DNA of 64,000 nucleotides from Chitinophagales bacterium (GTDB lineage Bacteria; Bacteroidota; Bacteroidia; Chitinophagales; JADIYW01): positions 145,273 to 209,272 of the forward strand of contig JAMLHJ010000001.1 of NCBI GenBank assembly GCA_023957245.1, in the 5' to 3' direction. Both the position numbers and the translations under genes were made by a program. The notes beneath the pieces are model-generated. The model was not told the DNA's origin. It was given only the letters and a program-made list of their open reading frames with translations, and ran no database searches. This document shows, in pieces, positions 111 to 46,138 of the stretch. Position 1 is the first letter of the stretch; every line of letters begins with the position of its first letter.

Positions 111-1346
111 TTATCTATTATTTTTGTTTACTTCAAAGTTCTTAATTATAGTCCAAAATTCAGGAAAGATTAATTCAAAATTCTCTTTTCGATATTGATC
201 TCCTCTTCTCATTTCATCAAAAAAAGCTTGAAATGGAACATTTGATGAAATATCCAGAAAGTCATAGATATTTTGAATCGTTCGATTGTGTACCTTACGA
301 ATACTATTATTAATTACTATCGTCCTTAACTTCTGTTTTATAATCCGTTTGACTTCAATTGGAAGATTTTTAATTGAAAGCGCATAAGGACCATGTAAAA
401 AGTTAAAATATATATGCATTCCAGGAAAGTCACGCTCAAATCTTTCAATAATTTCTGGAATATAATAAATATTGAAAATACTGATTGTGCAACAAATTTT
501 AGATTCTATTTTGCTTTTATCTTGAAACCCCGAAATCTTTAGATAATTCAAAATATTTTCTCTCACTTTTTCCCAAACAGCACCTTTCCTTTGATAATCA
601 AACCTTTTGTCAATATCATCTAAACTAAAATTAAGCAGGACTTTCTTGAAAGATTGCAATATAGTAACCCATTGCTCATTATAAATCGTCCCATTGGTAT
701 TTATAAGTAATTGAATATTTTTGCTATATCCATTTTCAACACAATAGGTAAGTATTTCTAGCGTTTCTTGATTATACATCGGCTCACCACCAAATAGACC
801 TAATTCTATTATTTCGGGTAATACCTTACGAATATCATCAAGATTAGCATCAGTAAGATTATGATGAGTTTCTGCTTCTTGCCCTAAAGTATCTTGTGCT
901 TCTTTAATCCATTTACTACTATATGTAGCACTACAGATTCGACATTTCAGGTTGCAAATATTACTAATATATAAATCTAATCTTTTTAGATGTGGATTTT
1001 TAAGAATTTCTTTCTTAAGTAGATAATCAAAAGAATCCAATCTCATAGATAAAATACCACTACCTTCTTCTTCTAAACAAACCTGACAAGCAGGGTGAAT
1101 TTGTCCATTAAGAAATCGAGCCCTTAAATCTTGCATATCAGAAGAATAAAATGCATCTATCAATGAATCTTCTTCTGTAGTCAGTTCCCTTCCGTAATCT
1201 TTTAAATTATCAGTCCATTTACAACAAGGCTTGTACTTTCCATCAGCTGTTAACATCATATTGAAAAATGGATAGACACAAAGACGAGGATAATTTCTCT
1301 CCTTAATGATTTCTCTATTTAGAAATTTAGGAAGTTTCCACATCAT
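111..1346 (-). CDS. Radical SAM protein with N-terminal twitch/SPASM-like domain
   Basis: CNLKCRIC radical SAM motif. N-terminal C-x2-PF...DG...PCC and C-x2-C cluster. GGEP motif. Start overlaps the stop of the upstream gene (ATGA coupling). Confidence 0.85.
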   Translation of the reverse strand: MMWKLPKFLNREIIKERNYPRLCVYPFFNMMLTADGKYKPCCKWTDNLKDYGRELTTEEDSLIDAFYSSDMQDLRARFLNGQIHPACQVCLEEEGSGILSMRLDSFDYLLKKEILKNPHLKRLDLYISNICNLKCRICSATYSSKWIKEAQDTLGQEAETHHNLTDANLDDIRKVLPEIIELGLFGGEPMYNQETLEILTYCVENGYSKNIQLLINTNGTIYNEQWVTILQSFKKVLLNFSLDDIDKRFDYQRKGAVWEKVRENILNYLKISGFQDKSKIESKICCTISIFNIYYIPEIIERFERDFPGMHIYFNFLHGPYALSIKNLPIEVKRIIKQKLRTIVINNSIRKVHNRTIQNIYDFLDISSNVPFQAFFDEMRRGDQYRKENFELIFPEFWTIIKNFEVNKNNR

Positions 1347-2725
1347 GATACTATCTTTTTAGGCAACAATTGTTGTAAAATATCAGAAATGGGCATTGAA
1401 TATAAGTGAGATATGCTATATTGACCTTCATTTATATATAACTCTAATTGTTTAAGATAAGTTTCTTTTAATACAGACTTCCTACCTATTGTAAGATAAT
1501 TATCTTCATCAAAATATGCCATAAGTAATTGTTCCATAGCAGAATAGACTTCATCAAATGTATGTGTAGTTACAAATTCTATACGTCTATTCTCTTCCAA
1601 TCTAGCCTCTCTACTCCAAACTTTAACTTGGTTTTCAACAAAATTTTTAAAATGTAAAATATTCTTATGATGAATAGGGTTTGAAGACTCAAAATCAATA
1701 CTAGATAAATATAGATAGGCAGATTGTAACTCATCAGCAGACATTTTCCACATTGATTGCTCAAATGGATAAATCACTGTATTCAACCAAAGTTGAACTT
1801 CATTTTGGTTACAAAAATAAACCATTAAAGGTATTTCTTTCCAATTAGACCTCATCGGATTGGAAGATACTCCTAAATAAGTATGATGTGCTTTAGCATG
1901 ATTAGCTAATTGATTGAAGTTATTCATTAGCTTTTGAAAATTACCTCTTAGTCGAATTTTTTCGTAGGTTTCTTCAACTACTGAATCTATAGAAACAATT
2001 AAATGACATTTTAAATGGTTTAGAACTCTTTTTACTCTTTCATTATAGACATTTCCATTAGTGGTTATAGTGATTTGAATTTCAGGATTAATCTCAATCA
2101 TCTGCTCCCAAATATCAAAATAGATATCAATTAAGAAAGGTTCTCCTCCCAAAAATTTAGCTTCCTTTAAATGAGGAATAAATTCCTTTAACTGTCTGAC
2201 AAATTCGTAATCATAAGGAGTTGATAAAGGCGGCAATTGTTCTCTATTCTTCCGTATAGAAGATGACAATTCACCCTTACACATAATGCATTCAAGATTG
2301 CAAGTGTTGCTCAATTCAAATTCTATAATAGTAGGATAGTCGCTTAGAGGATAATCATTGTCATAAAGCTTGCTTAGGACGGTTTCAAAGTTGTGGTTAT
2401 TGATATTTTTAAGACAAGTACTACAATGCTTATTAAGCTCAAAATGTTGAATACCCCTCCTTATTGACTGTAATTTCTGGCTATTCCAAATTTCTCTAAT
2501 AGATTTTTCTGGATAGCTGTCTTGTTGATCCAATGTCAGCCAACATGGCGCAGCTTGTCCAGAGACATTAAAATATAAGCTATTAAATGGCGCATGACAG
2601 ATATACTGTTTGTTCTTAATGCTTCTTGACTTCTGATAATCTTTGAAATCATCTGGAACATTCATCTTATTAGATGAAAACTGAGAGCGTAATTTATTAA
2701 ACAAGGTCTTCAAGTTTATAAACAA
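1343..2725 (-). CDS. Radical SAM protein with N-terminal twitch/SPASM-like domain (paralog of 111-1346)
   Basis: CNLECIMC motif, N-terminal CHAPF...PCW...CSTC, GGEPF, and VSIDS/YEKIR core motifs. Confidence 0.85.
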   Translation of the reverse strand: MFINLKTLFNKLRSQFSSNKMNVPDDFKDYQKSRSIKNKQYICHAPFNSLYFNVSGQAAPCWLTLDQQDSYPEKSIREIWNSQKLQSIRRGIQHFELNKHCSTCLKNINNHNFETVLSKLYDNDYPLSDYPTIIEFELSNTCNLECIMCKGELSSSIRKNREQLPPLSTPYDYEFVRQLKEFIPHLKEAKFLGGEPFLIDIYFDIWEQMIEINPEIQITITTNGNVYNERVKRVLNHLKCHLIVSIDSVVEETYEKIRLRGNFQKLMNNFNQLANHAKAHHTYLGVSSNPMRSNWKEIPLMVYFCNQNEVQLWLNTVIYPFEQSMWKMSADELQSAYLYLSSIDFESSNPIHHKNILHFKNFVENQVKVWSREARLEENRRIEFVTTHTFDEVYSAMEQLLMAYFDEDNYLTIGRKSVLKETYLKQLELYINEGQYSISHLYSMPISDILQQLLPKKIVS

Positions 2726-2909
2726 TAAGGATTCTCAATTTATTCAAAAGCATATAAAATTACATGAAAAGCATTTAATGATTTTTTTATTATATTTAGG
2801 TCTTACTTTAAAAATCAACAATGACATATAAATATACAAAGACTTTTTTTAGAAAGAAAAAGATAGCTTGCTATAAATAGCCCCTTTACTATTAAAATTA
2901 ATTTTCTTA

Positions 2910-3464
2910 ATGAGCGAGAATTTACTTATCAGATTTTCAATAAGCATAATTGTTTACTTTGTTTTTAATTATCTTATTTCAAAAAATACAAATAAGGAAG
3001 AGAAGGAATTAAGTGAAGCCTCTCTACCGCTCTTATATAAGAGTAAATTGTCAAAATTATTCTCCCCTTTTTTTGATACACATCTATTTAAATACTATGC
3101 TAATTACCTTCATGCACTTGAAGACTTACAAGATAAAAGTGCTATAAATAAATATTGGGTTTCCCTACATCTGTACATTCCGCTATTGATTGTAGTTAAA
3201 ACCTATTCTTTTATATCAGCGTTCATTTTGAATGGTCGAGAAGCTTTATTTATCAATTTTACTAGCCTTATATTCATTGTGCTCACTTTTTATTTCAATA
3301 GAAAAATCCTTAAGCCTTTAAATATCTTTACTGTTGATAATAATGACAAAAACAATAAATACATACTACTATCTCCTTTTATCATTATTGTAGGCATCAA
3401 TGGATGGATTCTGCATACTTTTCTTTATTATATCTTCATAGATAAGCTTGAGAAAAAAGAATAG
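2910..3464 (+). CDS. Hypothetical membrane protein
   Basis: 184-aa ORF with about 4 hydrophobic segments filling an otherwise empty gap. No family motif recognised. Confidence 0.5.
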   Translation: MSENLLIRFSISIIVYFVFNYLISKNTNKEEKELSEASLPLLYKSKLSKLFSPFFDTHLFKYYANYLHALEDLQDKSAINKYWVSLHLYIPLLIVVKTYSFISAFILNGREALFINFTSLIFIVLTFYFNRKILKPLNIFTVDNNDKNNKYILLSPFIIIVGINGWILHTFLYYIFIDKLEKKE

Positions 3465-3614: not shown

Positions 3615-5225
3615 TTAATTTTCTTCAAATTCTACCGCTGGAATATATTCCTTTTGCGTCAAATCATAAGGTGTAGTATCTTTGGGATATACGGCATGCC
3701 ATTTCTTCTTCATCCCCATTTTTCTCAAAATAAAATAAGTAATATGAAACAAATAATATTTGGCATAAGCAAAAAAGTCTGGATTGTAAGAGATAATTCC
3801 ATTGAATAAATCTGCAGAAAAATTTATCATTCCTTTTATAGGATTAGGAATCCACATGACATGTTGAATTTTGAATCTTACCCTTATAAACTTGGGAAGT
3901 AATGGATAAAGTCTAAATAATACTTCATAGGCTTTATATTTTTCAACTATTTCTGGATTCTTAATATTTTCAGGATTTCTAAAAAAATAAAAATCCTCTC
4001 CCTCATTCAACCTTTCGGCTTCTTCTGGTGTCACTATTCCCTCATCTATACCTTGTTGCAACAACTCTGTTCCTGGTAAAAAACAAGTCCAAAATGTCTG
4101 AATTCTCTTAGGGCAATGGTTAGCGTATAAAATCCTAGCAATTTCTTGCGCTTCTATTGCCTCTCCTGGCAATCCAAACATGTGATCTACCTTAACATTT
4201 AATCCTGCATCCAACATCACCTTCAAGGAGTATTCTACTTGATCACTACGTTCATTTCTTCTTAAATTCTTTACTTTGAAGCCCTCATCCATTGTCTGAA
4301 TACCCATTTGTATCCATCTACATCCAGCATCTACAAGCCATTGAGCAATCTCTTCATCCATATATCTTGGATGAGTTAAACATTGAAAAGGCACTCCAAT
4401 TTCTTCTTTATACCTCACAAGAAATTCTTTTAACCATTTCTTGTTCACTGTAAAAATATCATCTTCAAAGTCTATCCATTTCAACTTTTCATATCGCTTC
4501 TTGGCATATTTCAACTCATCAAGCATGTGATCTATACTTCTGGAACGAACATATTTGCCTTTACTTTTTTTATCATCAGGCAATTCAGCAAAAAAATTAT
4601 TAAAACAAAAAGTACATCTATATGGACAACCTCTAGTCGCCATCGTCAAATACCTATATGGAATAAAAATATAAGGATCCCAAATCTCTTTAGTGAAAGG
4701 AGGTAGAGTTTCTAATGCTTGATAAAATGACAATTGTTTACCAGCTACTATATCTCCTTTTGGATTCTTAAATTTTGTATTGGGAATAGGTGTAAAATAA
4801 TCTTTATTCTCTATTGCTTCCAACAAAGGAATAAAACACACTTCGCCCTCTCCTACTACTACATAATCTACTTGAGGTCTGACTATAACTCTATCTGATA
4901 CCGCTGATGGGTGCACACCACCAAAGATAATTTTGACATCTGGATAAACTTCTTTAGTGCGCCTAGCCATTTCAAGCATCCATTGATAAGTAGCTGTCAA
5001 AGAAGAGAATACCAATACATCAGGTCGCTGTGCGATTATTTGCTCAAAAGTCTCCTCAGTATCATCAAAAAATTTATTAAGCCAAGGGATTTCCAAATTA
5101 AATCTATCATGGAATAAGGCAACATTATATGCCAAATTTACTTCGTGTCCAGCTCTCTTAGCCATATTTGCTAGCAAGCTAACAGCCAATTGTTCAGAAC
5201 CTAAAGCAACAAATGTAATCCTCAT
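3615..5225 (-). CDS. Cobalamin-binding (class B) radical SAM protein, copy A
   Basis: N-terminal B12-binding Rossmann-like domain (GGVHPS...VGEGE), RGCPYRCTFC, EDDIF and MGIQT motifs. Confidence 0.9.
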   Translation of the reverse strand: MRITFVALGSEQLAVSLLANMAKRAGHEVNLAYNVALFHDRFNLEIPWLNKFFDDTEETFEQIIAQRPDVLVFSSLTATYQWMLEMARRTKEVYPDVKIIFGGVHPSAVSDRVIVRPQVDYVVVGEGEVCFIPLLEAIENKDYFTPIPNTKFKNPKGDIVAGKQLSFYQALETLPPFTKEIWDPYIFIPYRYLTMATRGCPYRCTFCFNNFFAELPDDKKSKGKYVRSRSIDHMLDELKYAKKRYEKLKWIDFEDDIFTVNKKWLKEFLVRYKEEIGVPFQCLTHPRYMDEEIAQWLVDAGCRWIQMGIQTMDEGFKVKNLRRNERSDQVEYSLKVMLDAGLNVKVDHMFGLPGEAIEAQEIARILYANHCPKRIQTFWTCFLPGTELLQQGIDEGIVTPEEAERLNEGEDFYFFRNPENIKNPEIVEKYKAYEVLFRLYPLLPKFIRVRFKIQHVMWIPNPIKGMINFSADLFNGIISYNPDFFAYAKYYLFHITYFILRKMGMKKKWHAVYPKDTTPYDLTQKEYIPAVEFEEN

Positions 5226-5431: not shown

Positions 5432-7051
5432 ATGTATATATTAGGTATTAATGGAGGTGTTCGACTAGGATACAGAGATGCATCAGCTGTATTACTCAAA
5501 GATGGAGAAATAGTTGCAGCTGTGGAAGAAGAAAGACTCAATAGAATCAAATCTTCACCTCACCAATTACCAGAGAAAGCTATTAGACAAGTTGTAGAAA
5601 TTGCTGGTATCCAAATAGAAGAAGTGGCTATTGTGGCTACTCATGGAAGCTCTTGGGGCGAACAATATGAATCTGTATTAAAGAATTTCTTTCATACAAA
5701 TTTTGATTTCATTCCAAATATCATGCGTTTTCATCATCATGATTGTCATGCTGCAGGAGCTTACTTTTCCTCAGGATATGATGAAGCATTGATTTTTACT
5801 TTTGACAACTCAGGTGATGGAATTGGTACACAAATAGCTATAGGAAAAGATAATTCTATTGAAGTCATTGAGCGGATAGAGCGACCTAATAGTTTGGGTA
5901 TGTTTTATGGAATGGCGACTCAATTTTGTGGGTTTGTGCGAGATAGTGATGAATTCAAGCTGATGGGTTTGGCTCCTTATGGACAAGCTACAATTGACTT
6001 ATCTGATGTTCTCAGAATTGATGAAACTGGGTTTCAATTAAATTTGGATTATCTCCAAAAAATAGAGCCTGGTCAACCTCAACCTAGTGTACAACAAGCA
6101 ATTTTCAGCGATAAATTCATTGAAAAGTATGGTAAAGGTCGAATTCCCAATCAAAAAATCTCTCAATTTTATAAGGATTTTGCAGCCTCAGCTCAACAAC
6201 AATTAGAATTGGCAATAGTCACTTTAATCAGAAAATATATTTCGAAAACAGGTATAAAGAAAATCTGTATTTCAGGAGGTGTAGGGCTGAATTGTGCTGC
6301 CAATAAAATTATTTTAGAGGTTCCTGAACTAGATGCATTATTTGTGCAACCAGCTTCAGGAGACGCAGGAATATCTCAAGGTGCAGTATATTTAGCTTCC
6401 TTAACTCAAGAGATAAAACCACTCAAAATCGACAATGTATATTGGGGAAAGTCATATACTGATGAAGATATTTTTTTAGCAATCAATCAATTGGGCTTAA
6501 AAGCTAAGAAAATTGAAAAACCTGCAAAACTGGCAGCTCAATTAATAGCTGAAGGTCAAGTGATTGGATGGTTTCAAGGTAGAATGGAATTTGGACCTCG
6601 TGCCTTGGGTAATAGAAGTATATTAGCCAATCCTCTGTTAGAAAATATTCAATCTCAAGTCAATCAAATAATTAAATTTAGAGAGGGTTTTAGGCCTTTT
6701 TGCCCTTCGTTATTAGAGGAAGATTTTGATTTGTACTTTGAAGGGAAACAAAAGATAGCTCCGTATATGACCATTAATTATTCTGCAAAGCCAGAAGTAA
6801 AGAGATTATTACCAGGAGTGATTCATATAAACAATACAGCCCGAATACAAACTGTAAATTCTTCTCAAAACCCGCTCTACTATGAACTGCTTCAAGAACT
6901 AAAGCGACTGACAGGTCATGGGATAGCATTGAACACTAGCTTTAATGTCAATCATCAACCCATTGTAGAAAATCCAGTACAAGCTATTTCTACTTTTTTT
7001 GGCTCAGGGCTTAATTCACTAATTATTGGAAATTATTGGATAACAAAATAA
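5432..7051 (+). CDS. Carbamoyltransferase (NodU/CmcH/TobZ family), copy A
   Basis: DASAVLLKDG...AAVEEERLNRIK, HHDCHA, KLMGLAPYG, WFQGRMEFGPRALGNRSILA, NTSFN. Confidence 0.92.
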   Translation: MYILGINGGVRLGYRDASAVLLKDGEIVAAVEEERLNRIKSSPHQLPEKAIRQVVEIAGIQIEEVAIVATHGSSWGEQYESVLKNFFHTNFDFIPNIMRFHHHDCHAAGAYFSSGYDEALIFTFDNSGDGIGTQIAIGKDNSIEVIERIERPNSLGMFYGMATQFCGFVRDSDEFKLMGLAPYGQATIDLSDVLRIDETGFQLNLDYLQKIEPGQPQPSVQQAIFSDKFIEKYGKGRIPNQKISQFYKDFAASAQQQLELAIVTLIRKYISKTGIKKICISGGVGLNCAANKIILEVPELDALFVQPASGDAGISQGAVYLASLTQEIKPLKIDNVYWGKSYTDEDIFLAINQLGLKAKKIEKPAKLAAQLIAEGQVIGWFQGRMEFGPRALGNRSILANPLLENIQSQVNQIIKFREGFRPFCPSLLEEDFDLYFEGKQKIAPYMTINYSAKPEVKRLLPGVIHINNTARIQTVNSSQNPLYYELLQELKRLTGHGIALNTSFNVNHQPIVENPVQAISTFFGSGLNSLIIGNYWITK

Positions 7052-7059
7052 CAATCACA

Positions 7060-8748
7060 TTACTCTACATTATAAATTAGTATCTTATCACTTTCAAAAA
7101 GAATAGGATACATGGATAAAGCGTTTTTATAATAAGACAATTCTCTTCCATCATTCATCAATGGGATATTATATTTATGAATAACTATCCTCTCTAAATG
7201 ATTTATTGAAATCAATGAGTCCAATTTTTCATTATTATTCATCTGAAAAATTAGTACTTGATTCTTTATTCTAGTATTAGGAATAAAAGCACAATCTCCG
7301 TTTAGCGAATTAGATTTATTCAATGTTTGAAGAAACATATATTGATGCTCAATAGCCATTTCTGTGTCTGAATCAGGAAGTTGTTTTGCGTTTGTAAAAA
7401 AAGGGATATAGAGTTGAGTATAGATAGAAGATGGCAAATTCAGCACAATTCTATTCTCTAATGAATAGGAATTAGATGTTTCAAAAAGCCGATTTATAGT
7501 TTTTTGAGATGGATAAATTCTCAGTTGAGACGGGAAATTTTCAATAATTGCAACAGTTATTAATAATATCACTACTTTTTTAAAACCCAATTCTTTTTCT
7601 ATTTTTTGCATGATATAGCACCATCCCACTATGATAACAAAAATGATAAAAATATATAGTCTGATTTTTATCCTAATCAATGAACCTAATCCCAAAAATT
7701 CATACAAAGGAAACATCGGTGCAAAATATCGTTGTTGTCCCAAATTTATAAATGAGCCAAGAGCTAATAATAAAATCAATAAAAACAACAACCAGAATTT
7801 CAAACCAACTTTTAAGCGATACAGTCCATACAATCCTATGATAGGAGTAATAATTCCAATACCAGCAGCATGAGTTTTTTCATTCCAATAATCTTTGGCA
7901 TACAATAATTTATTGCCTAAAAAAGTATTGGCTTGATAAACTATAAAATCTATCAACCGAAGCCCAGTATCATTGGCTCCTGTAATATTTAAAAAATTAA
8001 AACTTTGAGAATTATCATTCTTAATAAATAGAAAATAAAAAATTGGACTAATTAGGAATACCACTATAAAAAATGAAACAATAGTATTTATAAGAACTTT
8101 CTTATTCAATTTGTAATTTTCAAATAGTTCAAAAAGTAAATAATAAGCCCAAATTAGTCCTGTCAAAAAAAACATATAGCTTGAGAAATACAACTGCAAT
8201 GCTAAAAACAAAGCTCCTTTATAAATTAATCTGTAATCACCTTGGTCAAAATATCTCTTCAAGTAACTCAAAGAGAAAAGCCCAAAAGCCCAAAAAAGCC
8301 CATCTAAATTATCAATATTGGCTTGCAAATAATTGCTACATGCAAATAATAATCCACCAATAAATGCCCACTTTACTTGAAGTCTGAATATTTTAGTTAA
8401 ACAATAAAACCCAAAAGCATTGAGTGAAAAAACTAATGAACAAATCACCCAATATATCCATACTGGTGGTAGATTCATTGCTCTTAGAGGAATATATACC
8501 AATGAAAAACCTACTGAAAGATTGCCTTGAGAAAGAAAACTCTTTGAAGGATAAAGTATTGTGCCTATTCCATCAAATGAAAACCCGTTAGCTATGAAAT
8601 TATATAGATACTCATTTGTTGCTAAATAAAACCAATTGTCAATTTTACCAGGAAGCGAACCTTGAATGGGTAATTGTATAAAATAGATTCCTATAATTAA
8701 ACAATATAAAAGAAATACTGCTTTCGAATTTTCAAAACTAAATTTCAT
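7060..8748 (-). CDS. Polytopic membrane protein, GT-C/YfhO-like putative glycosyltransferase
   Basis: More than 10 hydrophobic segments, an acidic/aromatic motif (IDNWFY) after TM1, and a soluble C-terminal domain. Family is inferred. Confidence 0.5.
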   Translation of the reverse strand: MKFSFENSKAVFLLYCLIIGIYFIQLPIQGSLPGKIDNWFYLATNEYLYNFIANGFSFDGIGTILYPSKSFLSQGNLSVGFSLVYIPLRAMNLPPVWIYWVICSLVFSLNAFGFYCLTKIFRLQVKWAFIGGLLFACSNYLQANIDNLDGLFWAFGLFSLSYLKRYFDQGDYRLIYKGALFLALQLYFSSYMFFLTGLIWAYYLLFELFENYKLNKKVLINTIVSFFIVVFLISPIFYFLFIKNDNSQSFNFLNITGANDTGLRLIDFIVYQANTFLGNKLLYAKDYWNEKTHAAGIGIITPIIGLYGLYRLKVGLKFWLLFLLILLLALGSFINLGQQRYFAPMFPLYEFLGLGSLIRIKIRLYIFIIFVIIVGWCYIMQKIEKELGFKKVVILLITVAIIENFPSQLRIYPSQKTINRLFETSNSYSLENRIVLNLPSSIYTQLYIPFFTNAKQLPDSDTEMAIEHQYMFLQTLNKSNSLNGDCAFIPNTRIKNQVLIFQMNNNEKLDSLISINHLERIVIHKYNIPLMNDGRELSYYKNALSMYPILFESDKILIYNVE

Positions 8749-8749
8749 A

Positions 8750-11592: not shown

Positions 11593-11720
11593 TGATAGTA
11601 TTTTATAGACAACAAGTTAAGTAATCTAAGAGAATTTAAAATATTTACTTTGTATAACGACCAAAGAAAAATATAAATCATTTCAATTTACATTATATTT
11701 AGGCTCAATAGTAATTTAGA

Positions 11721-27486: not shown

Positions 27487-27505
27487 CCTTAATATAATTA
27501 TATAC

Positions 27506-33107: not shown

Positions 33108-33121
33108 TTCTAGATTAAAAA

Positions 33122-34839: not shown

Positions 34840-34881
34840 ATATATGAAGCAAGATAAAAATTAAATTAACATTCCCATACA

Positions 34882-37634: not shown

Positions 37635-37636
37635 TA

Positions 37637-39418
37637 TTAAGGATTCTTTTCAAATGTATCCAAGTAATAATAATTAAAATCATAGCGACCTGGCATAAGA
37701 GAATAATGAATTTGATTTAGTGCTGATAAATTAGGGAGCTTCTTGAATCTCAATTTATAATTATGCATCTCTAATGCATATTCTTCAATAAAATTATGAC
37801 GAAGTTCTTCTGTCATCACAAAGACAAACTTTTCTTTATTCTGAGATATACAATCATAAAAGCTAATAAAATCTGAACATTGACATATTCGATTTAATGC
37901 TCTTACATTATCAGGAACAAAGTTACTCCATGATTCAAAATGAGTAATATATTTATTGGTAGCATTTAGTTCTACTTTCCCTAATAAAGATGTATGCAAT
38001 AAAGAAAGTGACCAGATATCAAAAAGCAATATTTTATCCGTAAAAGAATGGTTAATTTCTGTAATAAAATTTCTTTTCAATTCTTCTTCATGTTTTCGAT
38101 CAATACTAATCTGTATATATTTATTATGCTGATAAGCAATTATAGGCACTAAAACGAATAGTATTAACCATTTTCTCTGATTACTTAATGATTTTATTTG
38201 AAGTTGAGAGAGCGTAACTAGTGAAACAAGTGAGATAATTGTAATACTAGGCAAGGCAACTCTAGACTCCAATTTATAAAATAGTAAAACAACACTTAAT
38301 AATCCTATAATTGCTATAAGAAAAGCAGTGTGATTATATATTAACTGTGGATTTTTTCTTTTATAAAATACAAAAAACAACACTCCTAATATGAAATTTA
38401 TAAAAAGTAAGAATATATAATTATACCACCAATTTGAACCCTCAGAATATTCCTCATTATAACCATCCTTAGCTTTATGTACTTCATAAGCAACCTTTAA
38501 TGGGATATTTCTCAGATTGTAAATAGAGTACAATTTGTTAGAACCCCATTTAGAAAGTAAAGAATCTGAGATTAAAGTAGAATCTGGCCAGTAATATAGA
38601 AAAATAGATTTATATCTGAAATCACTATTAGATAATTCTGAAAATGATTCGTTGTACACATTTTTCCCATCTGTTAGGTTTTGGATATGGGAGATTTTTT
38701 CAACATTAGCTTGAATTTCAGGGCTTGTTTGTATTTTATAGATTAAAACACTTAAAAATACCGTGAAGACAAATAGCTTTATCACCTTATAAGAAGCTTT
38801 ATCTTTGTATCTCCATAAATAGATTATGAAAGGTACTGTCCATAAAAGGGCAACTTCTAATCTATTCAGAAATCCGAGCAAAAGAAATATTAAACATAAA
38901 AATATTTTTACTTTTCTTTTAATAGATGGTAAATCATACTCTAAAGTATTATGTAACAGTAAAACTGACACACCAACGAGCAATATTGATGTTTTAGTGA
39001 AGTTGACAAGTATAATACTATCCATCCAAAATAATAAATAGAAACTTGCAATAAAGAAGATAAAAAAAAATAGGTTGTTACGATAAAAGTTGTTGAACAA
39101 TCTTGTAAGCAAATAGATTAACATTGTAGTTGCTACAGTCAGATAAAAAACCGAAAAATAACCATACCATGGTTTATCAGGAATGAGTTTGTACAGTTCA
39201 TAATATAGTCGTGATATAAGTACTTGATTGGTGTACATTTGCTTAGCAGGAGCAGCCAAACCAATACCCTTTAAATAATTACTCTGCAATACATCATCAA
39301 TCCAACCATAGTGAAAACCATAAGTGAAATAGGTTATAATTAATAACAAACACGATAAGATTATTGATGTTAGGAGGCGATGCTCAGTCAAATAACGATA
39401 AAGTTTATTATTCAGCAT
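37637..39418 (-). CDS. Polytopic membrane protein, putative GT-C glycosyltransferase
   Basis: WIDD acidic motif after TM1, about 11 TM segments, soluble C-terminal domain. Family is inferred. Confidence 0.45.
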   Translation of the reverse strand: MLNNKLYRYLTEHRLLTSIILSCLLLIITYFTYGFHYGWIDDVLQSNYLKGIGLAAPAKQMYTNQVLISRLYYELYKLIPDKPWYGYFSVFYLTVATTMLIYLLTRLFNNFYRNNLFFFIFFIASFYLLFWMDSIILVNFTKTSILLVGVSVLLLHNTLEYDLPSIKRKVKIFLCLIFLLLGFLNRLEVALLWTVPFIIYLWRYKDKASYKVIKLFVFTVFLSVLIYKIQTSPEIQANVEKISHIQNLTDGKNVYNESFSELSNSDFRYKSIFLYYWPDSTLISDSLLSKWGSNKLYSIYNLRNIPLKVAYEVHKAKDGYNEEYSEGSNWWYNYIFLLFINFILGVLFFVFYKRKNPQLIYNHTAFLIAIIGLLSVVLLFYKLESRVALPSITIISLVSLVTLSQLQIKSLSNQRKWLILFVLVPIIAYQHNKYIQISIDRKHEEELKRNFITEINHSFTDKILLFDIWSLSLLHTSLLGKVELNATNKYITHFESWSNFVPDNVRALNRICQCSDFISFYDCISQNKEKFVFVMTEELRHNFIEEYALEMHNYKLRFKKLPNLSALNQIHYSLMPGRYDFNYYYLDTFEKNP

Positions 39419-39435
39419 AATAACAATTAAATCAT

Positions 39436-40557
39436 CTAAAGCCCTAAATAGTTAGGTGTTGATTTGAATTCATCTTCATACTCTTTATTGACACTCCTCA
39501 TCAATAAAGCTTCTCTAATCATCTTCCCTTGCCATTTCTGACCAGCTCCAGTACAAGTCAACAAACAAGGCATTTTACATTTTCCAAAATGAACTAATGA
39601 AGTAAGATAGTCAAGTCTTTTAGAACTTACCCAAATTTCATCTAATGGTTTATCACTATAAATATTCCCGATTTCTTGAGTACAAGTCATACAATGTCCA
39701 TGCTCAAATATAATAAGGAGAATAAACCATACTGGTAAACAATAATTTAAAGCTTCACTTTCTAATTCTTCTTTATGAAACACAAATTTCTGAAACGTTT
39801 TATAGTACCCATTATTAAATTTTTTGTCTTTCTTTATCAGCGTTGCCATGTGAAAAGCAAAATCTTCCTCTAACTCCTTTTTCTTGATATCAAACAAAAC
39901 ATCTTTGTTAGATGCTTCATCAAATCCTTCGTAATCATGAATTGGTTGAAACTTAACTTCATCTGCCCATTGTCTAAAAAAATCAACATATTCACTCACT
40001 TCATGATAATTATCTTTCATCACAACACCACGAATAAGAATATAAGGCTTCTTCTTATCACCTCTATTTTCAATAATATACTTAACACCCTCCAGAGCCT
40101 TCTCAAATGAACCTTTACGCCCTCTTATTTTATCATGTAATTCAGCAATATGACTATCAAAACTAATAGCTAAATAATCAATTTCATTTTCAATTAAAAA
40201 ATCTGCGTACTCTCTTAAATGAAATCCATTTGTATTCAGCATTATTTTCTTTCTTGCATTCTTAAGAATAAGAATTAACTCTTTGATATTGGGTACTAAA
40301 AAAGGCTCTCCTCCACTAATATCAACAACCATAGTTTTTGATTGAGCAATCTTGTGAGCGGCATAAATCAATTTTTCAGTATCAATTTTATCCCTATTGA
40401 GATGATGAGAACAATGCATACATTTCAGATTACACCTTTTAGTTAATCTCCATAATGTAATGGGTGGAGACAATTTCTTATATCCACTTATAAAACTAAG
40501 GTTCTTCATGCATTGACTATAAAAAGCAATCTTCTCTTTCTTTGATAAGAAATCCAT
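39436..40557 (-). CDS. Radical SAM protein with Cys-rich C-terminal SPASM/twitch-like domain
   Basis: CNLKCMHC, SGGEPF, NTNG, ISFDS. C-terminal C...C..C, IGN, EIW and C...C...C. Confidence 0.85.
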   Translation of the reverse strand: MDFLSKKEKIAFYSQCMKNLSFISGYKKLSPPITLWRLTKRCNLKCMHCSHHLNRDKIDTEKLIYAAHKIAQSKTMVVDISGGEPFLVPNIKELILILKNARKKIMLNTNGFHLREYADFLIENEIDYLAISFDSHIAELHDKIRGRKGSFEKALEGVKYIIENRGDKKKPYILIRGVVMKDNYHEVSEYVDFFRQWADEVKFQPIHDYEGFDEASNKDVLFDIKKKELEEDFAFHMATLIKKDKKFNNGYYKTFQKFVFHKEELESEALNYCLPVWFILLIIFEHGHCMTCTQEIGNIYSDKPLDEIWVSSKRLDYLTSLVHFGKCKMPCLLTCTGAGQKWQGKMIREALLMRSVNKEYEDEFKSTPNYLGL

Positions 40558-40616
40558 TCTGTGTAGCTAATAATAACTATTTAAAGATAAGTTTATTTAT
40601 TTCAAAAATCTATTTG

Positions 40617-41282
40617 CTATCTAAATCCTTTATGCATTTGAAAAAACATTTGCATCTTTTTCATAAATGTATAATTAGATTTCCCTTGAAATCTTGGATA
40701 ATAAGCTACTTCGAGATATTGAACATCCAAATTCTCAAAATAGCGATTAAGATGTCCTTCAAAATGTGTATACATGATAAATCTATCTTTATCGAATACT
40801 ACTGTGCGTTTAAAAATTTTAAAACTATCAGTAATAGGCTTCTTCCACAACTTATTAAGGAATCTGTTACGCAGATTTGCAAATCTATTATTCTTGCCTT
40901 GTATTTTGTACTTCTGAGGAGAAATTCCAAATACAACATCGGCATTAGTCTCTAAGATAAATTGGTATAGTTTTACAATATCGCTTGGACAGTACTCTAA
41001 ATCATCGTCAATAGTAACTATATATTTTCCAATACTTTTTGAAATTCCAAAAGCTGAAGTCCCTGGTAATCCAATATTTATTGAATTAAAATAAGATCTA
41101 ACAAACTTATATCTATCTGACAATAAACCTATTACCTCCTTAGTCCCATCATTACTAAAATCATCAACTAAAATCACTTCAAACAACACATCTAAAGAAC
41201 CGATAAATCTCTGAATCCTATTCAACATTTCAGGCAATATCAGCTTACTTTTATAAACTGGAATAACAATAGACAATTCCAC
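40617..41282 (-). CDS. GT2 glycosyltransferase (ArnC/DPM1-like)
   Basis: VIPVYKS, VDDFSNDGT, IDDDLEY, R..GKSNY. Confidence 0.82.
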   Translation of the reverse strand: MELSIVIPVYKSKLILPEMLNRIQRFIGSLDVLFEVILVDDFSNDGTKEVIGLLSDRYKFVRSYFNSINIGLPGTSAFGISKSIGKYIVTIDDDLEYCPSDIVKLYQFILETNADVVFGISPQKYKIQGKNNRFANLRNRFLNKLWKKPITDSFKIFKRTVVFDKDRFIMYTHFEGHLNRYFENLDVQYLEVAYYPRFQGKSNYTFMKKMQMFFQMHKGFR

Positions 41283-41285
41283 AAT

Positions 41286-42146
41286 CTATCTATAAATAAA
41301 TTTAATTAGACGAAACAAACTTTTCTCTTCATACAAGTTCTCACCTCTTTCTAAAACATAATCATGTAACGTTCTCAAATTATATTGAGGAATATAAGGA
41401 TACATATGATGAACTTCGTGATAACCAAGTGAATATGGAGTAAAGAAGAAACTGAGAAATGGAGAAATAATTAAGCTTCTAGTCTGTACTCCTTCAGGCA
41501 AATTAAAATGTTCAGTATATGCTCTCAATCTATTTAATGTTTGAAACACTGTAATATAAGGTACTATCCATAAAAATATAATCACTTGTAATATTGTATT
41601 ATCACTAAAATAATAGAACATGAAAATTGCTAACAATAAACCTACAATCCAAAGCCTTTCATTAGGATTTTTTAAACATCCATAAAGTTTATATTTCAAG
41701 AAGTTATATCCACTCAAATCACCCAAAAGAATTCCAATAAAAGTTCTTTTTTTTAAAGGAAATTGAAATTCTGCATATCTTGACAATTGAAATTCTGGGT
41801 CTTTATCAGTAAGAAAGTTCTTGTGATGACTAAAATGATTATTTCTCATTTTTTGGAGAGAAATAAAAATTGGCCATGCAAGAAAAAGCCTTACTACCCA
41901 ATCATTAAGTATTTTATTTTTACATAATAAATAATGTATTCCATCATGGATTAAGCTATAAAATGCATACATCCTTGTTCCAATAACAAAGATGAATATG
42001 GGTAACAAATAATAGGAAATAGGTTTTAGAAAAATAAATAATAAAAAACAAGAAATAATAATCACCCATTCAAATAAAACAATAAATAAAGACTTCAGTT
42101 GATTCAATTTGCTCAATGAGCGAATATTTTCATCTAGGACTCTCAT
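41286..42146 (-). CDS. Membrane fatty acid desaturase-family protein
   Basis: His boxes HDGIH, HFSHH and HEVHH. DPE and EH motifs. Confidence 0.85.
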   Translation of the reverse strand: MRVLDENIRSLSKLNQLKSLFIVLFEWVIIISCFLLFIFLKPISYYLLPIFIFVIGTRMYAFYSLIHDGIHYLLCKNKILNDWVVRLFLAWPIFISLQKMRNNHFSHHKNFLTDKDPEFQLSRYAEFQFPLKKRTFIGILLGDLSGYNFLKYKLYGCLKNPNERLWIVGLLLAIFMFYYFSDNTILQVIIFLWIVPYITVFQTLNRLRAYTEHFNLPEGVQTRSLIISPFLSFFFTPYSLGYHEVHHMYPYIPQYNLRTLHDYVLERGENLYEEKSLFRLIKFIYR

Positions 42147-42262: not shown

Positions 42263-43717
42263 ATGAATTCAAAGCTAAAAAAGTTTGCACCACTTATCAT
42301 ATCTATTATAGTTCTTGTAATAATTGCTTTAGCATCTATACTATTTTTCTATAAAGAGAAGATACTAGTAGATACAGGCTATAGAGTATTTTATATGATT
42401 AATGCTGATGACTTTTGCTTTTCAAATAACAGATATATTCTTATTTTAAACCAATTAATTCCCCTATTGTTATACAATGCCTCATACTCTCTTAAAATAA
42501 TTATACAAACACTGACCATCAGTGATATTCTTTTTTACACAATAGGCGCACTAATTTCACATTTTCTATTCAAACAATATTTATACACACTCATTTTTCC
42601 CTTAGGATATGTTTTCATGTTTGGGTATATTTATTTTCACATCCCAGACAATGAGATTCATTTACAAACGGCCTTCATATATATTCTGGGACTTTGGTAT
42701 ATAAGTGGATATCCATTAACAATAACTTCTTGGGTAGGTATTTTTATAACACTTATTATAATACTTCTTGGGCATCCTATTGGGATTCCTTCCTCAATAG
42801 CCCTAGTAGGTTTAATTTGGTTGAGACACCCACTTTCAAAATTAAAAACGACAATATTACTCCTATTAATTTTATGCCTAGCATTTTTAAGATGGTATAT
42901 ACAAGATGCTTATGAAACTTCTGTTATCAATAATATAAATAGTAATGCCATCTTTTCAAATATGAGTGAGAAATTCAATCAAATCCTATTTATAATTAAA
43001 ACCCATCCCTTCTTCACTCTTTTCTTTTTCTTTTTATATATCAGACTTTTTCAAATCCAAAAATATAAAGAGTTAATACTCATTTCAGCTCTCATTCTAC
43101 TCAATTTCAGCTTACTATTTACTCAAAAAAATGGAGCTTATTTTGAACCATATTTAGTGCCATTAAGTGGTGTACTATTGATTATGACCTTTAAAAATGT
43201 GCTTCAACCATTATATAATAAACAACCCATTGTTACCATCTCCATTCTAATATTATTCTTTATTACTGAAATATCTGCCATTGCACCACACTATAAAAAA
43301 TATCATCAGAAAGTGCAATTCGTTGAAAGTTTGATTCAAAAATCTGATGCATATCCCAAAAATCAACGCTTTTTGTACGACAACAATATAGATAGTACAA
43401 AAAATTTTGAAAGCAGTTTTGAATATGCTTCTAGTATGTTACTTAGCACATTAAACGGAAAGTCAAAAGTATTTATCCCTACTAATAGTATTCCCAATTC
43501 TATTGGCTCGATATTGCCTTTTTTAGATACACAAACAAAAAAGGTTCTCTTTCCTGACTCAACAAATATTCATTCAACTGCGCAACTTATTCACTATGCA
43601 AATATTTTTTACAATGAAGAATATAAATATATTAATGCTCCGCAAGTCTGGTTTTCAGGTCAATTAAATGAAAAATACTTTAAAATGAATACTACTGAAT
43701 TTATTCTCTTAAAATAA
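42263..43717 (+). CDS. Polytopic membrane protein, possible GT-C
   Basis: About 11 TM segments, acidic residues (DTG...NADDF) in the first loop, soluble C-terminal domain. Confidence 0.4.
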   Translation: MNSKLKKFAPLIISIIVLVIIALASILFFYKEKILVDTGYRVFYMINADDFCFSNNRYILILNQLIPLLLYNASYSLKIIIQTLTISDILFYTIGALISHFLFKQYLYTLIFPLGYVFMFGYIYFHIPDNEIHLQTAFIYILGLWYISGYPLTITSWVGIFITLIIILLGHPIGIPSSIALVGLIWLRHPLSKLKTTILLLLILCLAFLRWYIQDAYETSVINNINSNAIFSNMSEKFNQILFIIKTHPFFTLFFFFLYIRLFQIQKYKELILISALILLNFSLLFTQKNGAYFEPYLVPLSGVLLIMTFKNVLQPLYNKQPIVTISILILFFITEISAIAPHYKKYHQKVQFVESLIQKSDAYPKNQRFLYDNNIDSTKNFESSFEYASSMLLSTLNGKSKVFIPTNSIPNSIGSILPFLDTQTKKVLFPDSTNIHSTAQLIHYANIFYNEEYKYINAPQVWFSGQLNEKYFKMNTTEFILLK

Positions 43718-43762: not shown

Positions 43763-44968
43763 TTACAATTTGTTCAAAACAAAGTACTTATAATAAACAA
43801 CCTTAGGAATAATATTCAACTTGGAAAGTAACTTTATCACTCCTCTAAATGGCCTTATCCAATTAAACATCGTATTATAATCTCTGAAGTCTTTAGTAGG
43901 CAATGCCATCCATTCTTCAAACTGTTCTTTTGTCACCCCTAGCTTTTTCAGACAAGCATCAATCACTACTGGGTCTTCAATCTTATATATCCCATGTGCT
44001 CTTTTTATTGCTTCTTCTCTTGACAAAAATCCAGAACGTACCAGTGCTGCATCACTATTCATGTTCATATCAACATCAAATTTTACTCGATGAACATACT
44101 TAATTAAACTATGGTATAAATCATCAAAATAATGTGCTCCAGGATAAATCCAATCCAATTCCTCCTCAATCTTTTTCTGAGCTTCTGGACGAATATAGTC
44201 CCAATAATATAAGGGTGTATATGTCCTTATACCTTTAATAAATGAATAATAAAACAATTCTTTGACCCCAAAATTGTACCCTGGTTGGTATGGAGACCAT
44301 TTTGCTAATTTCAAACTACCAAACTTTTTATGAACATCACGAAGATAATCTCCATCAAAAAACGACCACACCAAAGGTTTGGTACCTTCAGTTCTAAATG
44401 ATTGTCCTATAAATACATACTTAATACCTTCTTTAGCAGCTTCACTATATAAAGAAGACGCAATACCAATATCAGTACCCATATTCATGTCAGGCGTAGA
44501 TGCTTTTAAAAAATCAATTTTCAACTCTTTAGCTTCTTCCCAATCTGATACAACATTTCTGAAATCCACACCTAAAATCTTACAGGCTTTTACCATATTA
44601 TCTGTAGCAATAGGATTGTCAAACCAATCATCAAAATGAACCGCTAAAGGTCTCAATCCCCATATTTTCACTAAAAAATAAAGTAAATAAATACTATCTC
44701 GACCTCCACTCACTCCAGCAACACAATCATATTTTTTCCCTTTACCTTGTTTTTTAACTTTAGCAAAAAGCTCAGTTAATATTTTCAAACCTTTTTCACC
44801 ATTAGGAAAAATATCTTCCATCATATCATGAAAATGACAGTAATTGCATTCACCAGACTTGTCAAAAGTAATATAAGGAATACTAGTATCCTGACAACAT
44901 CTAGTACAAACTTGCCCTCTATGACTATCGAGATTTAGGTCAGAGGATATTGAATAAGAAGTTTCCAT
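43763..44968 (-). CDS. N-acetyl sugar amidotransferase (WbpG-like PP-loop ATPase)
   Basis: CTRC...FD.SG.CNYC, YDCVAGVSGGRDS, LRPLAVHFD, GQSFRTEG, SREEA. Confidence 0.88.
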   Translation of the reverse strand: METSYSISSDLNLDSHRGQVCTRCCQDTSIPYITFDKSGECNYCHFHDMMEDIFPNGEKGLKILTELFAKVKKQGKGKKYDCVAGVSGGRDSIYLLYFLVKIWGLRPLAVHFDDWFDNPIATDNMVKACKILGVDFRNVVSDWEEAKELKIDFLKASTPDMNMGTDIGIASSLYSEAAKEGIKYVFIGQSFRTEGTKPLVWSFFDGDYLRDVHKKFGSLKLAKWSPYQPGYNFGVKELFYYSFIKGIRTYTPLYYWDYIRPEAQKKIEEELDWIYPGAHYFDDLYHSLIKYVHRVKFDVDMNMNSDAALVRSGFLSREEAIKRAHGIYKIEDPVVIDACLKKLGVTKEQFEEWMALPTKDFRDYNTMFNWIRPFRGVIKLLSKLNIIPKVVYYKYFVLNKL

Positions 44969-45022
44969 GCAGATTATTTATTTCATAAAAATAAAATAAT
45001 TTCCTCAACAGTTCCAAATACT

Positions 45023-46138
45023 TTATTTAAAAAAATTAAAAATATTTTCAATTATTTTTTCCTGTTCTTCATTTTTTAATAGAAAATATTGAGGAAGTCT
45101 TAATAATTTAGCACTTTCTTTAGAAGTATTAATATCTTCTCCTGAGAAATACCCATGCTTTTTCCCATAGGGAGATGTATGTAATGGAGTGTAATGAAAG
45201 GTGGCATCTACTCCATCTTTTCTCAAATAATCAATCAGTTTATTCCTTTCATTTAGATCATTTAACTTTATCCAGAACAAATGTCCATTGTGTTGGGCAT
45301 ACTCAGGAACTTTTGCAAGTTTTATTTTACCCTCATTCTCTAAGACTTGTAATTCCTTAAAATAAAAATTCCAATTACTGACATACTTATCCACTATCTC
45401 TTCTGTATGCTCTAGTTGAGCTTGAAGTATAACAGCGAGATGTTCAGCAAGAAGAGAATTAGTTCCTACATGTTGCCATTCATAAGAAGATACATGACCT
45501 TGCATGAATAACTTCTTATTTGTTCCAAAATAATAAGATTGGACAAATGAATTCATAAAATCTATATGATTGATAGTTATACCTCCACCTTCGTCACAAC
45601 TGATATTTTTATAAAAATCAAAACTCAATGTAGAAATATCTCCACAAGTCCCAAGATAAGCATCTCGATACTTTGCATCTATCCCATGAGCATTATCCTC
45701 TATTAGAACTAATGAATTTTGTCGGCAAATATTTCTTATCCTATCATAATCACATGCAACGCTCCCATAGTTAATTGTAATAACAGCAACAGTATTCTCA
45801 TTTATAGCATTCTCTATAGCACCTGCACTAATATTCATCGTATCAGGTTCACAATCTACAAATACACATTTTAACCCATTAATAACCACAGAATTAGCTA
45901 AAGAAACAAAACCATAAGATGGAATAATCACTTCCTTTCCTTTAGGAAAACCAAGAGTCATCAACGCTAAATTAAGCGATTGGGTACAAGATTTAGTAAG
46001 AAAAAAATTCTGATAAGAATATTTTTCAACCAAATATTTTTCAACCAAATTTCTGGGATTGATAACTTTTCCTTGATAAAAATTATTTAGGCTTCTTAAT
46101 TCATCTGCCAAATGGTTCTTTTTGAAAAAGGGTATCAT
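45023..46138 (-). CDS. wecE: dTDP-4-amino-4,6-dideoxygalactose transaminase-like (WecE/RffA)
   Basis: TKSCT.SL, IEDNAHG, LGT.GDI..LSF...KN..C.EGG, GT..FF.G.V..Y.W...G.N, HNGHLF, FHY.PLH.SPYG. Confidence 0.8.
   Translation of the reverse strand: MIPFFKKNHLADELRSLNNFYQGKVINPRNLVEKYLVEKYSYQNFFLTKSCTQSLNLALMTLGFPKGKEVIIPSYGFVSLANSVVINGLKCVFVDCEPDTMNISAGAIENAINENTVAVITINYGSVACDYDRIRNICRQNSLVLIEDNAHGIDAKYRDAYLGTCGDISTLSFDFYKNISCDEGGGITINHIDFMNSFVQSYYFGTNKKLFMQGHVSSYEWQHVGTNSLLAEHLAVILQAQLEHTEEIVDKYVSNWNFYFKELQVLENEGKIKLAKVPEYAQHNGHLFWIKLNDLNERNKLIDYLRKDGVDATFHYTPLHTSPYGKKHGYFSGEDINTSKESAKLLRLPQYFLLKNEEQEKIIENIFNFFK

Follow-up and report, generated by a model that had tools for sequence, protein, structure and literature searches.

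A species-variable island of radical SAM, oxygenase and membrane glycosyltransferase genes that probably serves an envelope glycan in a Chitinophagales bacterium

The diversity of bacterial surface glycans is thought to stem from nucleotide-sugar pathways and Leloir glycosyltransferases. Three-component extracytoplasmic glycosylation, as in Gtr-type O-antigen glucosylation and in the pentofuranose system (PPPRS/MATE/GT136) that Kelly et al. (2024, PMC11127046) describe for Citrobacter youngae, uses small, mobile modules that drive antigenic diversity: a cytoplasmic enzyme makes a polyprenyl-phosphate (polyprenyl-P) monosaccharide, which is exported and then transferred by a dedicated glycosyltransferase of the GT-C class. 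The lipid-linked donor can be edited by auxiliary enzymes in the cytoplasm; established examples in which undecaprenyl-phosphate sugars are edited ahead of transfer by a GT-C are Citrobacter ORF13, DprE1/E2 and ArnD (PMC11127046). Here we describe an island of ~82 kb and ~72 genes in an uncultured Chitinophagales bacterium from wastewater (GenBank GCA_023957245.1), where membrane glycosyltransferases lie among radical S-adenosylmethionine (radical SAM) enzymes and iron/2-oxoglutarate (Fe/2OG) oxygenases. The window, meaning the whole stretch of 64,000 nucleotides analysed, is C1:145273-209272 of this genome (G000; 3.09 Mb, 23 contigs, 33.4% G+C), on contig JAMLHJ010000001.1; positions below are window coordinates, negative when upstream, with the strand in brackets. 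At a probability of roughly 60%, we read the island as a species-variable locus between a prophage and thiE that builds or decorates an O-antigen- or capsule-like envelope glycan through semi-independent three-component modules. It appears to work like the Gtr, Arn and GT136 systems joined to a Wzm/Wzt pathway, and it is a member of no characterised one.

All open reading frames (ORFs) of at least 100 amino acids (aa) in 111-46138 were scanned with Pfam and NCBIfam. The preliminary description, made from the letters of the window, had treated this region as a 46-kb island of 37 genes, a count that takes a frameshifted SGNH gene at 23344-24214 as one. Its gene classes were borne out for all 37, but the region is the right-hand 46 kb of a longer island: island-type ORFs run ~36 kb further upstream, to about −36340. 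There the island abuts a prophage (about −67000 to −36400) whose ORFs include portal, capsid, tail and tail-fibre-like ones. The window start splits an array of eight N-terminal-twitch radical SAM genes straddling position 1, and the 3′ end of one such gene, encoding 542 aa and starting upstream, occupies 1-61 (+), which shows that the island extends leftward. On the right the border lies at 46282, where thiE, a gene for a 212-aa protein and one for a Glu_synthase-domain protein (46282-49208, −) form an anchor outside the island that is conserved in a congener. The coding density of 111-46138 is 95%, and no intergenic gap exceeds 206 bp. Island G+C is ~30%, below the genome-wide value. Homopolymer tracts occur in the island at twice their genome-wide density; because its AT content is also higher, we draw no inference from this.

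One feature of the island that recalls the Gtr and GT136 systems is a small GT2 glycosyltransferase that travels with a GT-C. Six small island GT2s (221-285 aa) best match ArnC, DPMS, GtrB, PpgS, AglJ and a dolichyl-P hexose transferase, and by these best matches they are putative enzymes that load a sugar onto polyprenyl phosphate. Four, as previously listed, lie in 111-46138: 9846-10565 (−), closest to AglJ, dolichyl-P hexose transferase and PpgS; 17459-18154 (−); 33982-34839 (−), which is PpgS/AglJ-like; and 40617-41282 (−), whose best PDB matches are ArnC (E 3e-10), DPMS and GtrB. The same region encodes five polytopic proteins of 484-593 aa, none of which matches Pfam even at E≤5. Searched by sequence against the PDB, the 562-aa and 593-aa proteins and an 87-sequence profile of the 562-aa family returned only noise.

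Structure prediction placed two of the five. The 562-aa protein (7060-8748, −) belongs to a small orphan family with 241 representatives among 1.84 billion proteins, nearly all of ~560 aa. Its AlphaFold2 model, from an alignment of 87 family members, has a pLDDT of 93.9 and a pTM of 0.94, and all 20 of its 20 best Foldseek matches in the PDB are GT-C enzymes (probability 1.0, TM-score 0.43-0.56), among them PglB, yeast and human STT3, AglB, ALG12 and AftD. We are therefore confident that the predicted fold is GT-C; an Asp after the first transmembrane (TM) segment is near-invariant in the family. The 593-aa protein (37637-39418, −) has only three homologues among 5.8 billion proteins and a weak model (pLDDT 61.8). 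Its top eight Foldseek matches are all GT-C (DPY19, AglB, ArnT), GW(I/F)DD after TM1 is invariant in its family, and we tentatively class it as GT-C. Profile comparison of the 562-aa family with the 593-, 513-, 534- and 484-aa proteins found no similarity. Thus, where the preliminary description had proposed five GT-C-like proteins, the 562-aa protein stands by its fold and the 593-aa protein tentatively, and we do not extend the name to the 534-aa protein (24331-25935, −; no family match, and GT-C, Wzy-like or other), the 513-aa protein (25945-27486, −; no family match, with a 44% identical copy in congener G002) or the 484-aa ORFan (42263-43717, +), which has no homologue among 5.8 billion proteins.

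The pairing of the two enzyme types is an observation in its own right. In the island a GT2 lies one gene from the 562-aa protein (7060-10565), and a 556-aa paralogue of that protein lies beside a GT2 in the upstream part. In four unrelated contigs (L111, L112/L113, L114/L115), a homologue of the 562-aa protein has a GT2 of 216-234 aa as its immediate neighbour; GT2 and GT-C travel together across unrelated genomes. The larger of these contigs also encode an NDP-sugar dehydratase and an NTP transferase, as well as a dehydratase fused to a C-methyltransferase, and the fusion (in L114) matches the separate window genes at 11721 and 12800 with 44-47% identity. Unlike the Gtr and GT136 systems, the island has no recognised GtrA, SMR or MATE flippase, its GT-Cs are orphan families that match neither Pfam nor, by sequence, the PDB, and several modules are stacked in a single locus. 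Its auxiliary enzymes, moreover, are radical SAM proteins and O2-dependent oxygenases, not a single epimerase. Filing under the pentofuranose system itself was tried and rejected, as the UbiA-family protein of the island has no DPPR/PPPRS model match, PDB match or HAD/PRP domain.

The Arn pathway (ArnB, C, A, D, T, E/F) offers a second comparison. One island operon (7060-10565) joins the GT-C and GT2 to a DegT/DnrJ/EryC1 sugar aminotransferase (8750-9856, −); a sister GT2 has ArnC as its best PDB match, and a polysaccharide deacetylase with DUF3473 is encoded elsewhere in the island (33122-33985, +). In contrast to Arn, the island lacks ArnA (formyltransferase and UDP-GlcA decarboxylase) and ArnE/F, and no PMT or PMT_2 (ArnT-family) match was found even at E≤5. 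Its NDP-hexose 4,6-dehydratase/epimerase-family protein (11721-12803, +) and NDP-sugar C-methyltransferase (Methyltransf_13/14; 12800-14023, +), which is fused to the dehydratase in L114, would point to a C-methylated amino-deoxyhexose and not to Ara4N. From family functions, this is the product predicted for the whole module 7060-14023, which also contains an SGNH/GDSL protein with an N-terminal TM segment (10525-11592, −). These dehydratase, C-methyltransferase, aminotransferase and amidotransferase genes, together with GT2s that match polyprenyl-P sugar synthases and at least one adjacent GT-C, uphold the earlier proposal of lipid-carrier-linked sugars and envelope glycans.

An exporter, which had seemed to be lacking, sits in the upstream flank. 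There an ABC-2 permease of Wzm type (ABC2_membrane, 49.9 bits) and a Wzt/TagH-like ATPase with a C-terminal extension (ABC_tran match) recall the ABC-dependent O-antigen and teichoic-acid pathways (Wzm/Wzt, TagG/TagH); the best NCBIfam matches of the pair are TagH, Wzt, KpsM and Wzm. Between the two lie seven PhyH dioxygenase genes (−34169 to −25385), one fused to a methyltransferase and all but one on the strand of the exporter, an arrangement that we know from no characterised locus. The nearest solved structures of a PhyH paralogue include SnoK, SnoN and EvdO2, at low identity (E 1e-8 to 5e-4). The combination of Wzm and PhyH array recurs in another congener (G005:C32 22.7-27 kb); a further genome (G010:C2 32-34 kb) has the PhyH array with no Wzm match within the region fetched. 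Set against the ABC-dependent pathways, the island has no polymerising multidomain glycosyltransferase or recognised chain terminator. The preliminary description had looked to the adjacent sequence for standard wzx/wzy/wzz genes and a characterised O-antigen or capsule: an exporter is indeed there, but neither wzx/wzy/wzz nor a characterised O-antigen homologue was found.

Two further systems resemble the island in part. Like mycobacterial arabinogalactan and lipoarabinomannan assembly (UbiA-type DPPR synthase, PpgS with Rv3779, Emb/Aft), in which multiple GT-Cs are fed by polyprenyl-P-sugars, the island has a UbiA-family membrane protein (at its left end, about −36340), PpgS-like GT2s and, among its fold matches, AftD. 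It differs in phylum and envelope, it has no DprE1/E2 homologues, and its UbiA protein fails the DPPR synthase model, matching generic prenyltransferase models only (28-41 bits). The sugar-tailoring enzymes of aminoglycoside, anthracycline and orthosomycin pathways (BtrN, GenK, SnoK/SnoN, HygX/EvdO) belong to the same superfamilies as the island enzymes and have sugar substrates. They differ from the island proteins in that the twitch domain of the latter is N-terminal (NF033640), identity is low and the context is an envelope-glycan locus.

The concentration of radical and oxygenase genes far exceeds chance. Genome-wide there are 20 Radical_SAM, 7 PhyH and 4 Asp_Arg_Hydrox genes; the island, 2.7% of the genome, holds 11, 7 and 4 of them, respectively (p ~7e-13, ~1e-11 and ~5e-7). 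Region 111-46138 alone (1.5% of the genome) has 5/20 Radical_SAM and 4/4 Asp_Arg_Hydrox genes (binomial p ~1e-5 and ~5e-8). Its five radical SAM proteins, counted correctly before, comprise two N_Twi-type, two B12-binding and one plain enzyme, and its five Fe/2OG-type oxygenases are four Asp_Arg_Hydrox proteins and one Cupin_8/JmjC protein.

The N_Twi_rSAM family (NF033640) gives the island its most distinctive enzymes. All eight genomic copies, six of them in the upstream part, form one array, and 6/8 score above the 170-bit cutoff. In the window, N_Twi_rSAM at 111-1346 (−) scores 301 bits and has its SPASM/twitch Cys motif N-terminal to CxxxCxxC; the paralogue at 1343-2725 (−) scores 145 bits, below the cutoff. 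The eight share just 19-30% mutual identity, yet four N-terminal Cys residues and CxxxCxxC are invariant in 8/8, and because every cluster cysteine is kept at such divergence they are old paralogues. The family has at least 1,694 metagenomic homologues, and our literature search found no characterised member or function. Membrane-anchored (TM-) SGNH genes flank N_Twi arrays in 4/4 fetched relatives that have one (G002, G003, G005, G038) and in contig L108. Some N_Twi homologues of 620-665 aa (e.g. P0185-P0189) carry TPR repeats, a hint of protein-protein docking in part of the family.

Comparison across genomes argues for separately conserved modules at a fixed site. With the flanking Glu_synthase gene as query, the nearest named relative and an anchor were obtained: L027, the metagenome-assembled genome 'Chitinophagales bacterium ACE_NR_BACT6'. 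This congener has counterparts of the Glu_synthase-domain gene (95% identity), the 212-aa gene (71%), thiE (90%) and the first island gene, for WbuX (82%); past WbuX, its island-type genes differ both in kind and in order. The chromosomal site is thus fixed and its content differs between congeners, in which N_Twi copy numbers are 0, 7, 4, 1 and 4. Conserved co-occurrence, which the preliminary description had named as a check, is found in congeners and metagenomic contigs alike. The module 41286-36567 (FA_desaturase-family, GT2, radical SAM, 593-aa protein and convergent JmjC) has the same order on metagenomic contig L107 at 49-75% identity, next to a pair of B12 radical SAM and GNAT-like genes and a pair of GFO/IDH/MocA and GT2 genes, and congener G003 has 4/5 genes of this 36567-42146 module near one another. 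G003 also carries a counterpart of block 8750-14023 (39-49% identity), and its sister genome G002 one of block 25945-36444 (40-66%).

Each sub-module is conserved elsewhere at 25-80% identity, in other orders and combinations. The island is thus probably a mosaic of sub-modules, and the single linear pathway to one product that had been envisaged is probably not what it encodes. Within the species the island is stable: near-identical copies occur in activated-sludge, bioreactor and biofilm metagenomes of several studies, and one metagenome run covers 28-47.5 kb of it at ~99% identity. More broadly, the N_Twi family occurs in 17/41 genomes of relatives and in 2/151 of an even sample of the phylum. 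The island and its relatives, which are patchy in the family and nearly absent from the rest of the phylum, suggest that radical SAM and Fe/2OG chemistry serves an entire bacterial family in diversifying the envelope.

A mechanism in keeping with the glycan reading can be sketched, with its substrates, acceptor, flippase and sequence of steps all inferred. For each module, cytoplasmic 4,6-dehydratase, C-methyltransferase, DegT, WbuX/AsnB and carbamoyltransferase enzymes would make an unusual nucleotide sugar. A small ArnC/GtrB-like GT2 would load this onto polyprenyl phosphate, the lipid-linked sugar would be flipped across the membrane, and a module-specific GT-C would add it extracytoplasmically to an acceptor glycan. 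The radical SAM enzymes (N-terminal-twitch, B12 and plain) and the oxygenases (PhyH, LpxO-like, JmjC, FMO and di-iron) would be cytoplasmic or cytoplasm-facing, since they lack signal peptides and need SAM and a reductant, or 2-oxoglutarate and O2. There they could tailor donors in which the sugar is linked to a nucleotide or to polyprenyl-P, or else the substrate of Wzm/Wzt ahead of its export, with methylation, oxidation, epimerisation and hydroxylation as candidate reactions. Sugars are among the known substrates of Fe/2OG enzymes (PMC13374393). With their N-terminal TM segments, the membrane-anchored SGNH proteins would act after export, adding or removing acyl groups. The modules would be stacked around one ABC-exported polymer. 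Polysaccharide loci elsewhere in the genome, which include two WbaP-type (Bac_transf) genes on other contigs, three Wzy_C proteins and a second ABC-2, could supply the acceptor.

A bolder version is possible, though we hold it to be doubtful: the radical SAM and iron-oxygenase enzymes may edit lipid-carrier-linked sugars (polyprenyl-P-monosaccharides or a polymer held by Wzm/Wzt), with GT-Cs then installing C-methylated, oxidised, epimerised and possibly halogenated sugars beyond the reach of nucleotide-sugar pathways. To our knowledge, radical SAM and Fe/2OG chemistry on sugars has so far been met almost only in antibiotic pathways, and no surface glycan has been described with it. If true, the island would be a glycan counterpart of the maturation of peptides that are synthesised on ribosomes and modified after translation (RiPPs), and the N-terminal-twitch radical SAM proteins would be a new class of carbohydrate-modifying radical enzymes. 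In the extreme form, an orphan GT-C battery would assemble most of the glycan outside the cytoplasm, much like mycobacterial arabinan, in Gram-negative Bacteroidota. Literature searches found no description of radical-SAM-rich O-antigen loci and no described pathway of this kind, in agreement with the earlier impression of an unrecognised one. The island offers compact modules of 5-7 genes and three orphan enzyme families (N_Twi radical SAM, 562-aa GT-C and 593-aa), and it bears on phage-host and floc or biofilm ecology in activated sludge, where the organism recurs.

Several observations weigh against the envelope-glycan reading. No GtrA, SMR or MATE flippase match appeared in Pfam or NCBIfam for any island protein, and the only flippase candidates are an orphan 184-aa protein with four predicted TM segments and no family match (2910-3464, +) and the 484-aa ORFan. 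The 82 kb contain no initiating phosphoglycosyltransferase and no polymerising Leloir glycosyltransferase, only the small GT2s and one GT32-like protein in the upstream part. Every GT2, Wzm and Wzt match scores under its NCBIfam equivalog cutoff, and three of the five membrane proteins (534, 513 and 484 aa) have no class. Radical SAM enzymes are oxygen-sensitive, and their coexistence in one pathway with at least 16 O2-dependent enzymes has no explanation. An RNA search gave three runs of unknown type with thin, fragmentary coverage and was uninformative on expression. Nor is the link of N_Twi radical SAM proteins to envelope glycans universal, as a pair on contig L116 has unrelated, non-glycan neighbours and on L117, a phage-like contig, at least one of four radical SAM genes in tandem is N_Twi.

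A lipid-remodelling island is one unlikely alternative. Here the LpxO/OlsC-like hydroxylases, FA_desaturase-family proteins, FMO and lipase-like SGNH proteins would act on lipid A, aminolipids or sphingolipids, altering their acyl chains or head groups, and the GT2 and GT-C enzymes would add sugars, as in Arn and Francisella Flm. The Asp_Arg_Hydrox proteins lend it some colour, as their only NCBIfam matches are OlsC and LpxO, but the one copy scanned, at 15520-16299 (−), scores 80-91 bits against equivalog cutoffs of 450 (OlsC) and 500 bits (LpxO), and that identity was rejected for it; the copy at 35641-36444 (−) is nearest in structure to protein aspartyl/asparaginyl beta-hydroxylases. One FA_desaturase-family protein, a predicted di-iron membrane oxygenase, carries cytochrome b5 (14050-15393, −), as might suit a lipid substrate. 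The other, a 286-aa di-iron protein (41286-42146, −), has as its best NCBIfam match GntB, an arginine hydroxylase, below the model cutoff, so membership of the family implies no lipid substrate. LpxO-like and desaturase-family genes travel with GT2/GT-C pairs. The ArnC match of one GT2 and the resemblance of the DegT and deacetylase genes to ArnB and ArnD favour this alternative, but there is no ArnA and no ArnT/PMT Pfam match. Wzm/Wzt, NDP-deoxysugar genes and O-antigen-typical amidotransferases point instead to a polymer, and variability from congener to congener is unexpected for core lipid pathways.

About equally improbable is a protein acceptor, with the GT-Cs resembling O- or N-oligosaccharyltransferases or PMT and glycosylating surface proteins or those exported by the type IX secretion system (T9SS), so that the island would diversify a protein-linked glycan. 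Bacteroidota possess general O-glycosylation systems, T9SS-tagged genes occur within and beside the island, and for two GT2s the top match in NCBIfam is AglJ, of S-layer N-glycosylation. By fold, the 562-aa protein comes closest to the oligosaccharyltransferases PglB, STT3 and AglB. However, Foldseek rank among GT-Cs at a TM-score of ~0.5 and 11-13% identity cannot identify the acceptor, and the 562-aa family is without the large C-terminal periplasmic domain of oligosaccharyltransferases (640-870 aa versus 562 aa). The presence of Wzm/Wzt again argues for a polymer route.

Weaker still, and very improbable, is a secondary-metabolite cluster for an aminoglycoside- or orthosomycin-like oligosaccharide. 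Twitch and B12 radical SAM enzymes, DegT, GFO/IDH/MocA, carbamoyltransferase, C-methyltransferase and PhyH are standard tools there, with BtrN, GenK/GenD1, TobZ and HygX-type enzymes as precedents, and SnoK, SnoN and EvdO2 are near in structure to a PhyH paralogue. No cyclitol synthase, GT1/GT4 Leloir glycosyltransferase, resistance or regulator genes were seen in the island, which instead has six polyprenyl-P-type GT2s, GT-C enzymes, an O-antigen/teichoic-type exporter and about ten membrane-anchored SGNH proteins, and a fixed site with species-variable content is typical of surface-antigen loci. A RiPP cluster is rejected, since the gaps hold only low-complexity ORFs of 23-27 codons and no precursor, as the preliminary description had also noted, and the neighbours are sugar and SGNH genes.

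The remaining genes of the island are described here from left to right. Upstream of the window it further encodes about eight membrane-anchored SGNH proteins, a sulfotransferase and an NTP transferase with a GT2. Within 111-46138, the listed tally of one FMO, two FA_desaturase-family proteins, two carbamoyltransferases, three amidotransferases, two DegT aminotransferases, a weak GNAT, a deacetylase and two SGNH genes was confirmed. A B12-binding radical SAM protein, probably of the C-methyltransferase class (3615-5225, −; 80% identical copy in congener G005), is followed by a carbamoyltransferase of NodU/CmcH/TobZ type (5432-7051, +). Beyond the C-methyltransferase and the LpxO/OlsC-like protein come a GFO/IDH/MocA oxidoreductase (16458-17450, +), paired with a GT2 here and in L107, and a second B12-binding radical SAM protein (18215-19855, −), with a 78% identical copy in L107. 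The latter adjoins a 340-aa weakly GNAT-like protein (19979-21001, −) both here and in L107, where the two are divergent. A flavin-containing monooxygenase (FMO; 21047-22330, −) and an Asp_Arg_Hydrox protein with C-terminal TM segments (22426-23223, +) precede the split SGNH gene.

To the right of the 513-aa protein lies a glutamine amidotransferase (GATase) fused to a WbuX-type N-acetyl-sugar amidotransferase (27506-29482, −), followed by the second carbamoyltransferase (29637-31370, +) and an asparagine-synthase-type (AsnB) amidotransferase (31371-33107, +). Another Asp_Arg_Hydrox gene (34882-35640, −) directly precedes the copy at 35641-36444. The plain radical SAM protein (39436-40557, −), with neither a B12 domain nor an N-terminal twitch, has a 75% identical copy in L107. 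A WbuX-type N-acetyl-sugar amidotransferase (43763-44968, −), whose 82% identical copy lies beside thiE in L027, and the second DegT aminotransferase (45023-46138, −), the last island gene, complete the region. In the Cupin_8/JmjC oxygenase (36567-37634, +), HxA replaces HxD in the motif TPMHNA. The 65%-identical orthologue at L107:8041-9048 keeps HxA, so the loss of the carboxylate ligand is conserved and not an error; a second Cupin_8 protein on L107 has the canonical HQD.

The SGNH gene at 23344-24214 (−) encodes a TM-SGNH protein, and a frameshift within an A8 tract (about 23811) splits it. A8 is found in metagenome runs X1, X2 and X10; run X3, which belongs to another study, has a contig with A7, and this allele yields one open 304-codon frame with the GDS motif intact. 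The tract could be a phase-variable switch or a strain polymorphism. A second TM-SGNH gene, at −17336 to −15863, appears to be split as well: its TM part (318 aa) and its SGNH part (199 aa) share an overlap of 83 bp, with a T7 tract close by. A variant contig of run X3 joins 30571 to 33207 with 18 other letters between, which would delete the 3′ part of the second carbamoyltransferase gene, the AsnB-type gene and the deacetylase gene's first part, and suggests micro-diversity of the island within the population.

Several neighbours stand apart from these genes. A Peptidase_S74 (endosialidase-chaperone) protein of 379 aa is encoded inside the island within −18919..−17395, followed by a separate 104-aa ORF with a weak match to a T9SS tail; a further S74 protein (1263 aa) lies at 50242-54033. 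Outside the island, a type I polyketide synthase module (ketosynthase-acyltransferase-acyl carrier protein, 1087 aa; 57287-60550) lies beside a SET-domain protein (56877-57245). The phage-like L117 (ENA contig k141_3040446, 39 kb) has many small unannotated ORFs, a thymidylate synthase and a dihydrofolate reductase. Its radical SAM array adjoins GFO/IDH/MocA, DegT and NDP-sugar dehydratase genes, neighbours that still point to amino-deoxysugar chemistry, and the set may comprise viral genes for sugar modification, with either DNA or the host surface as the target.

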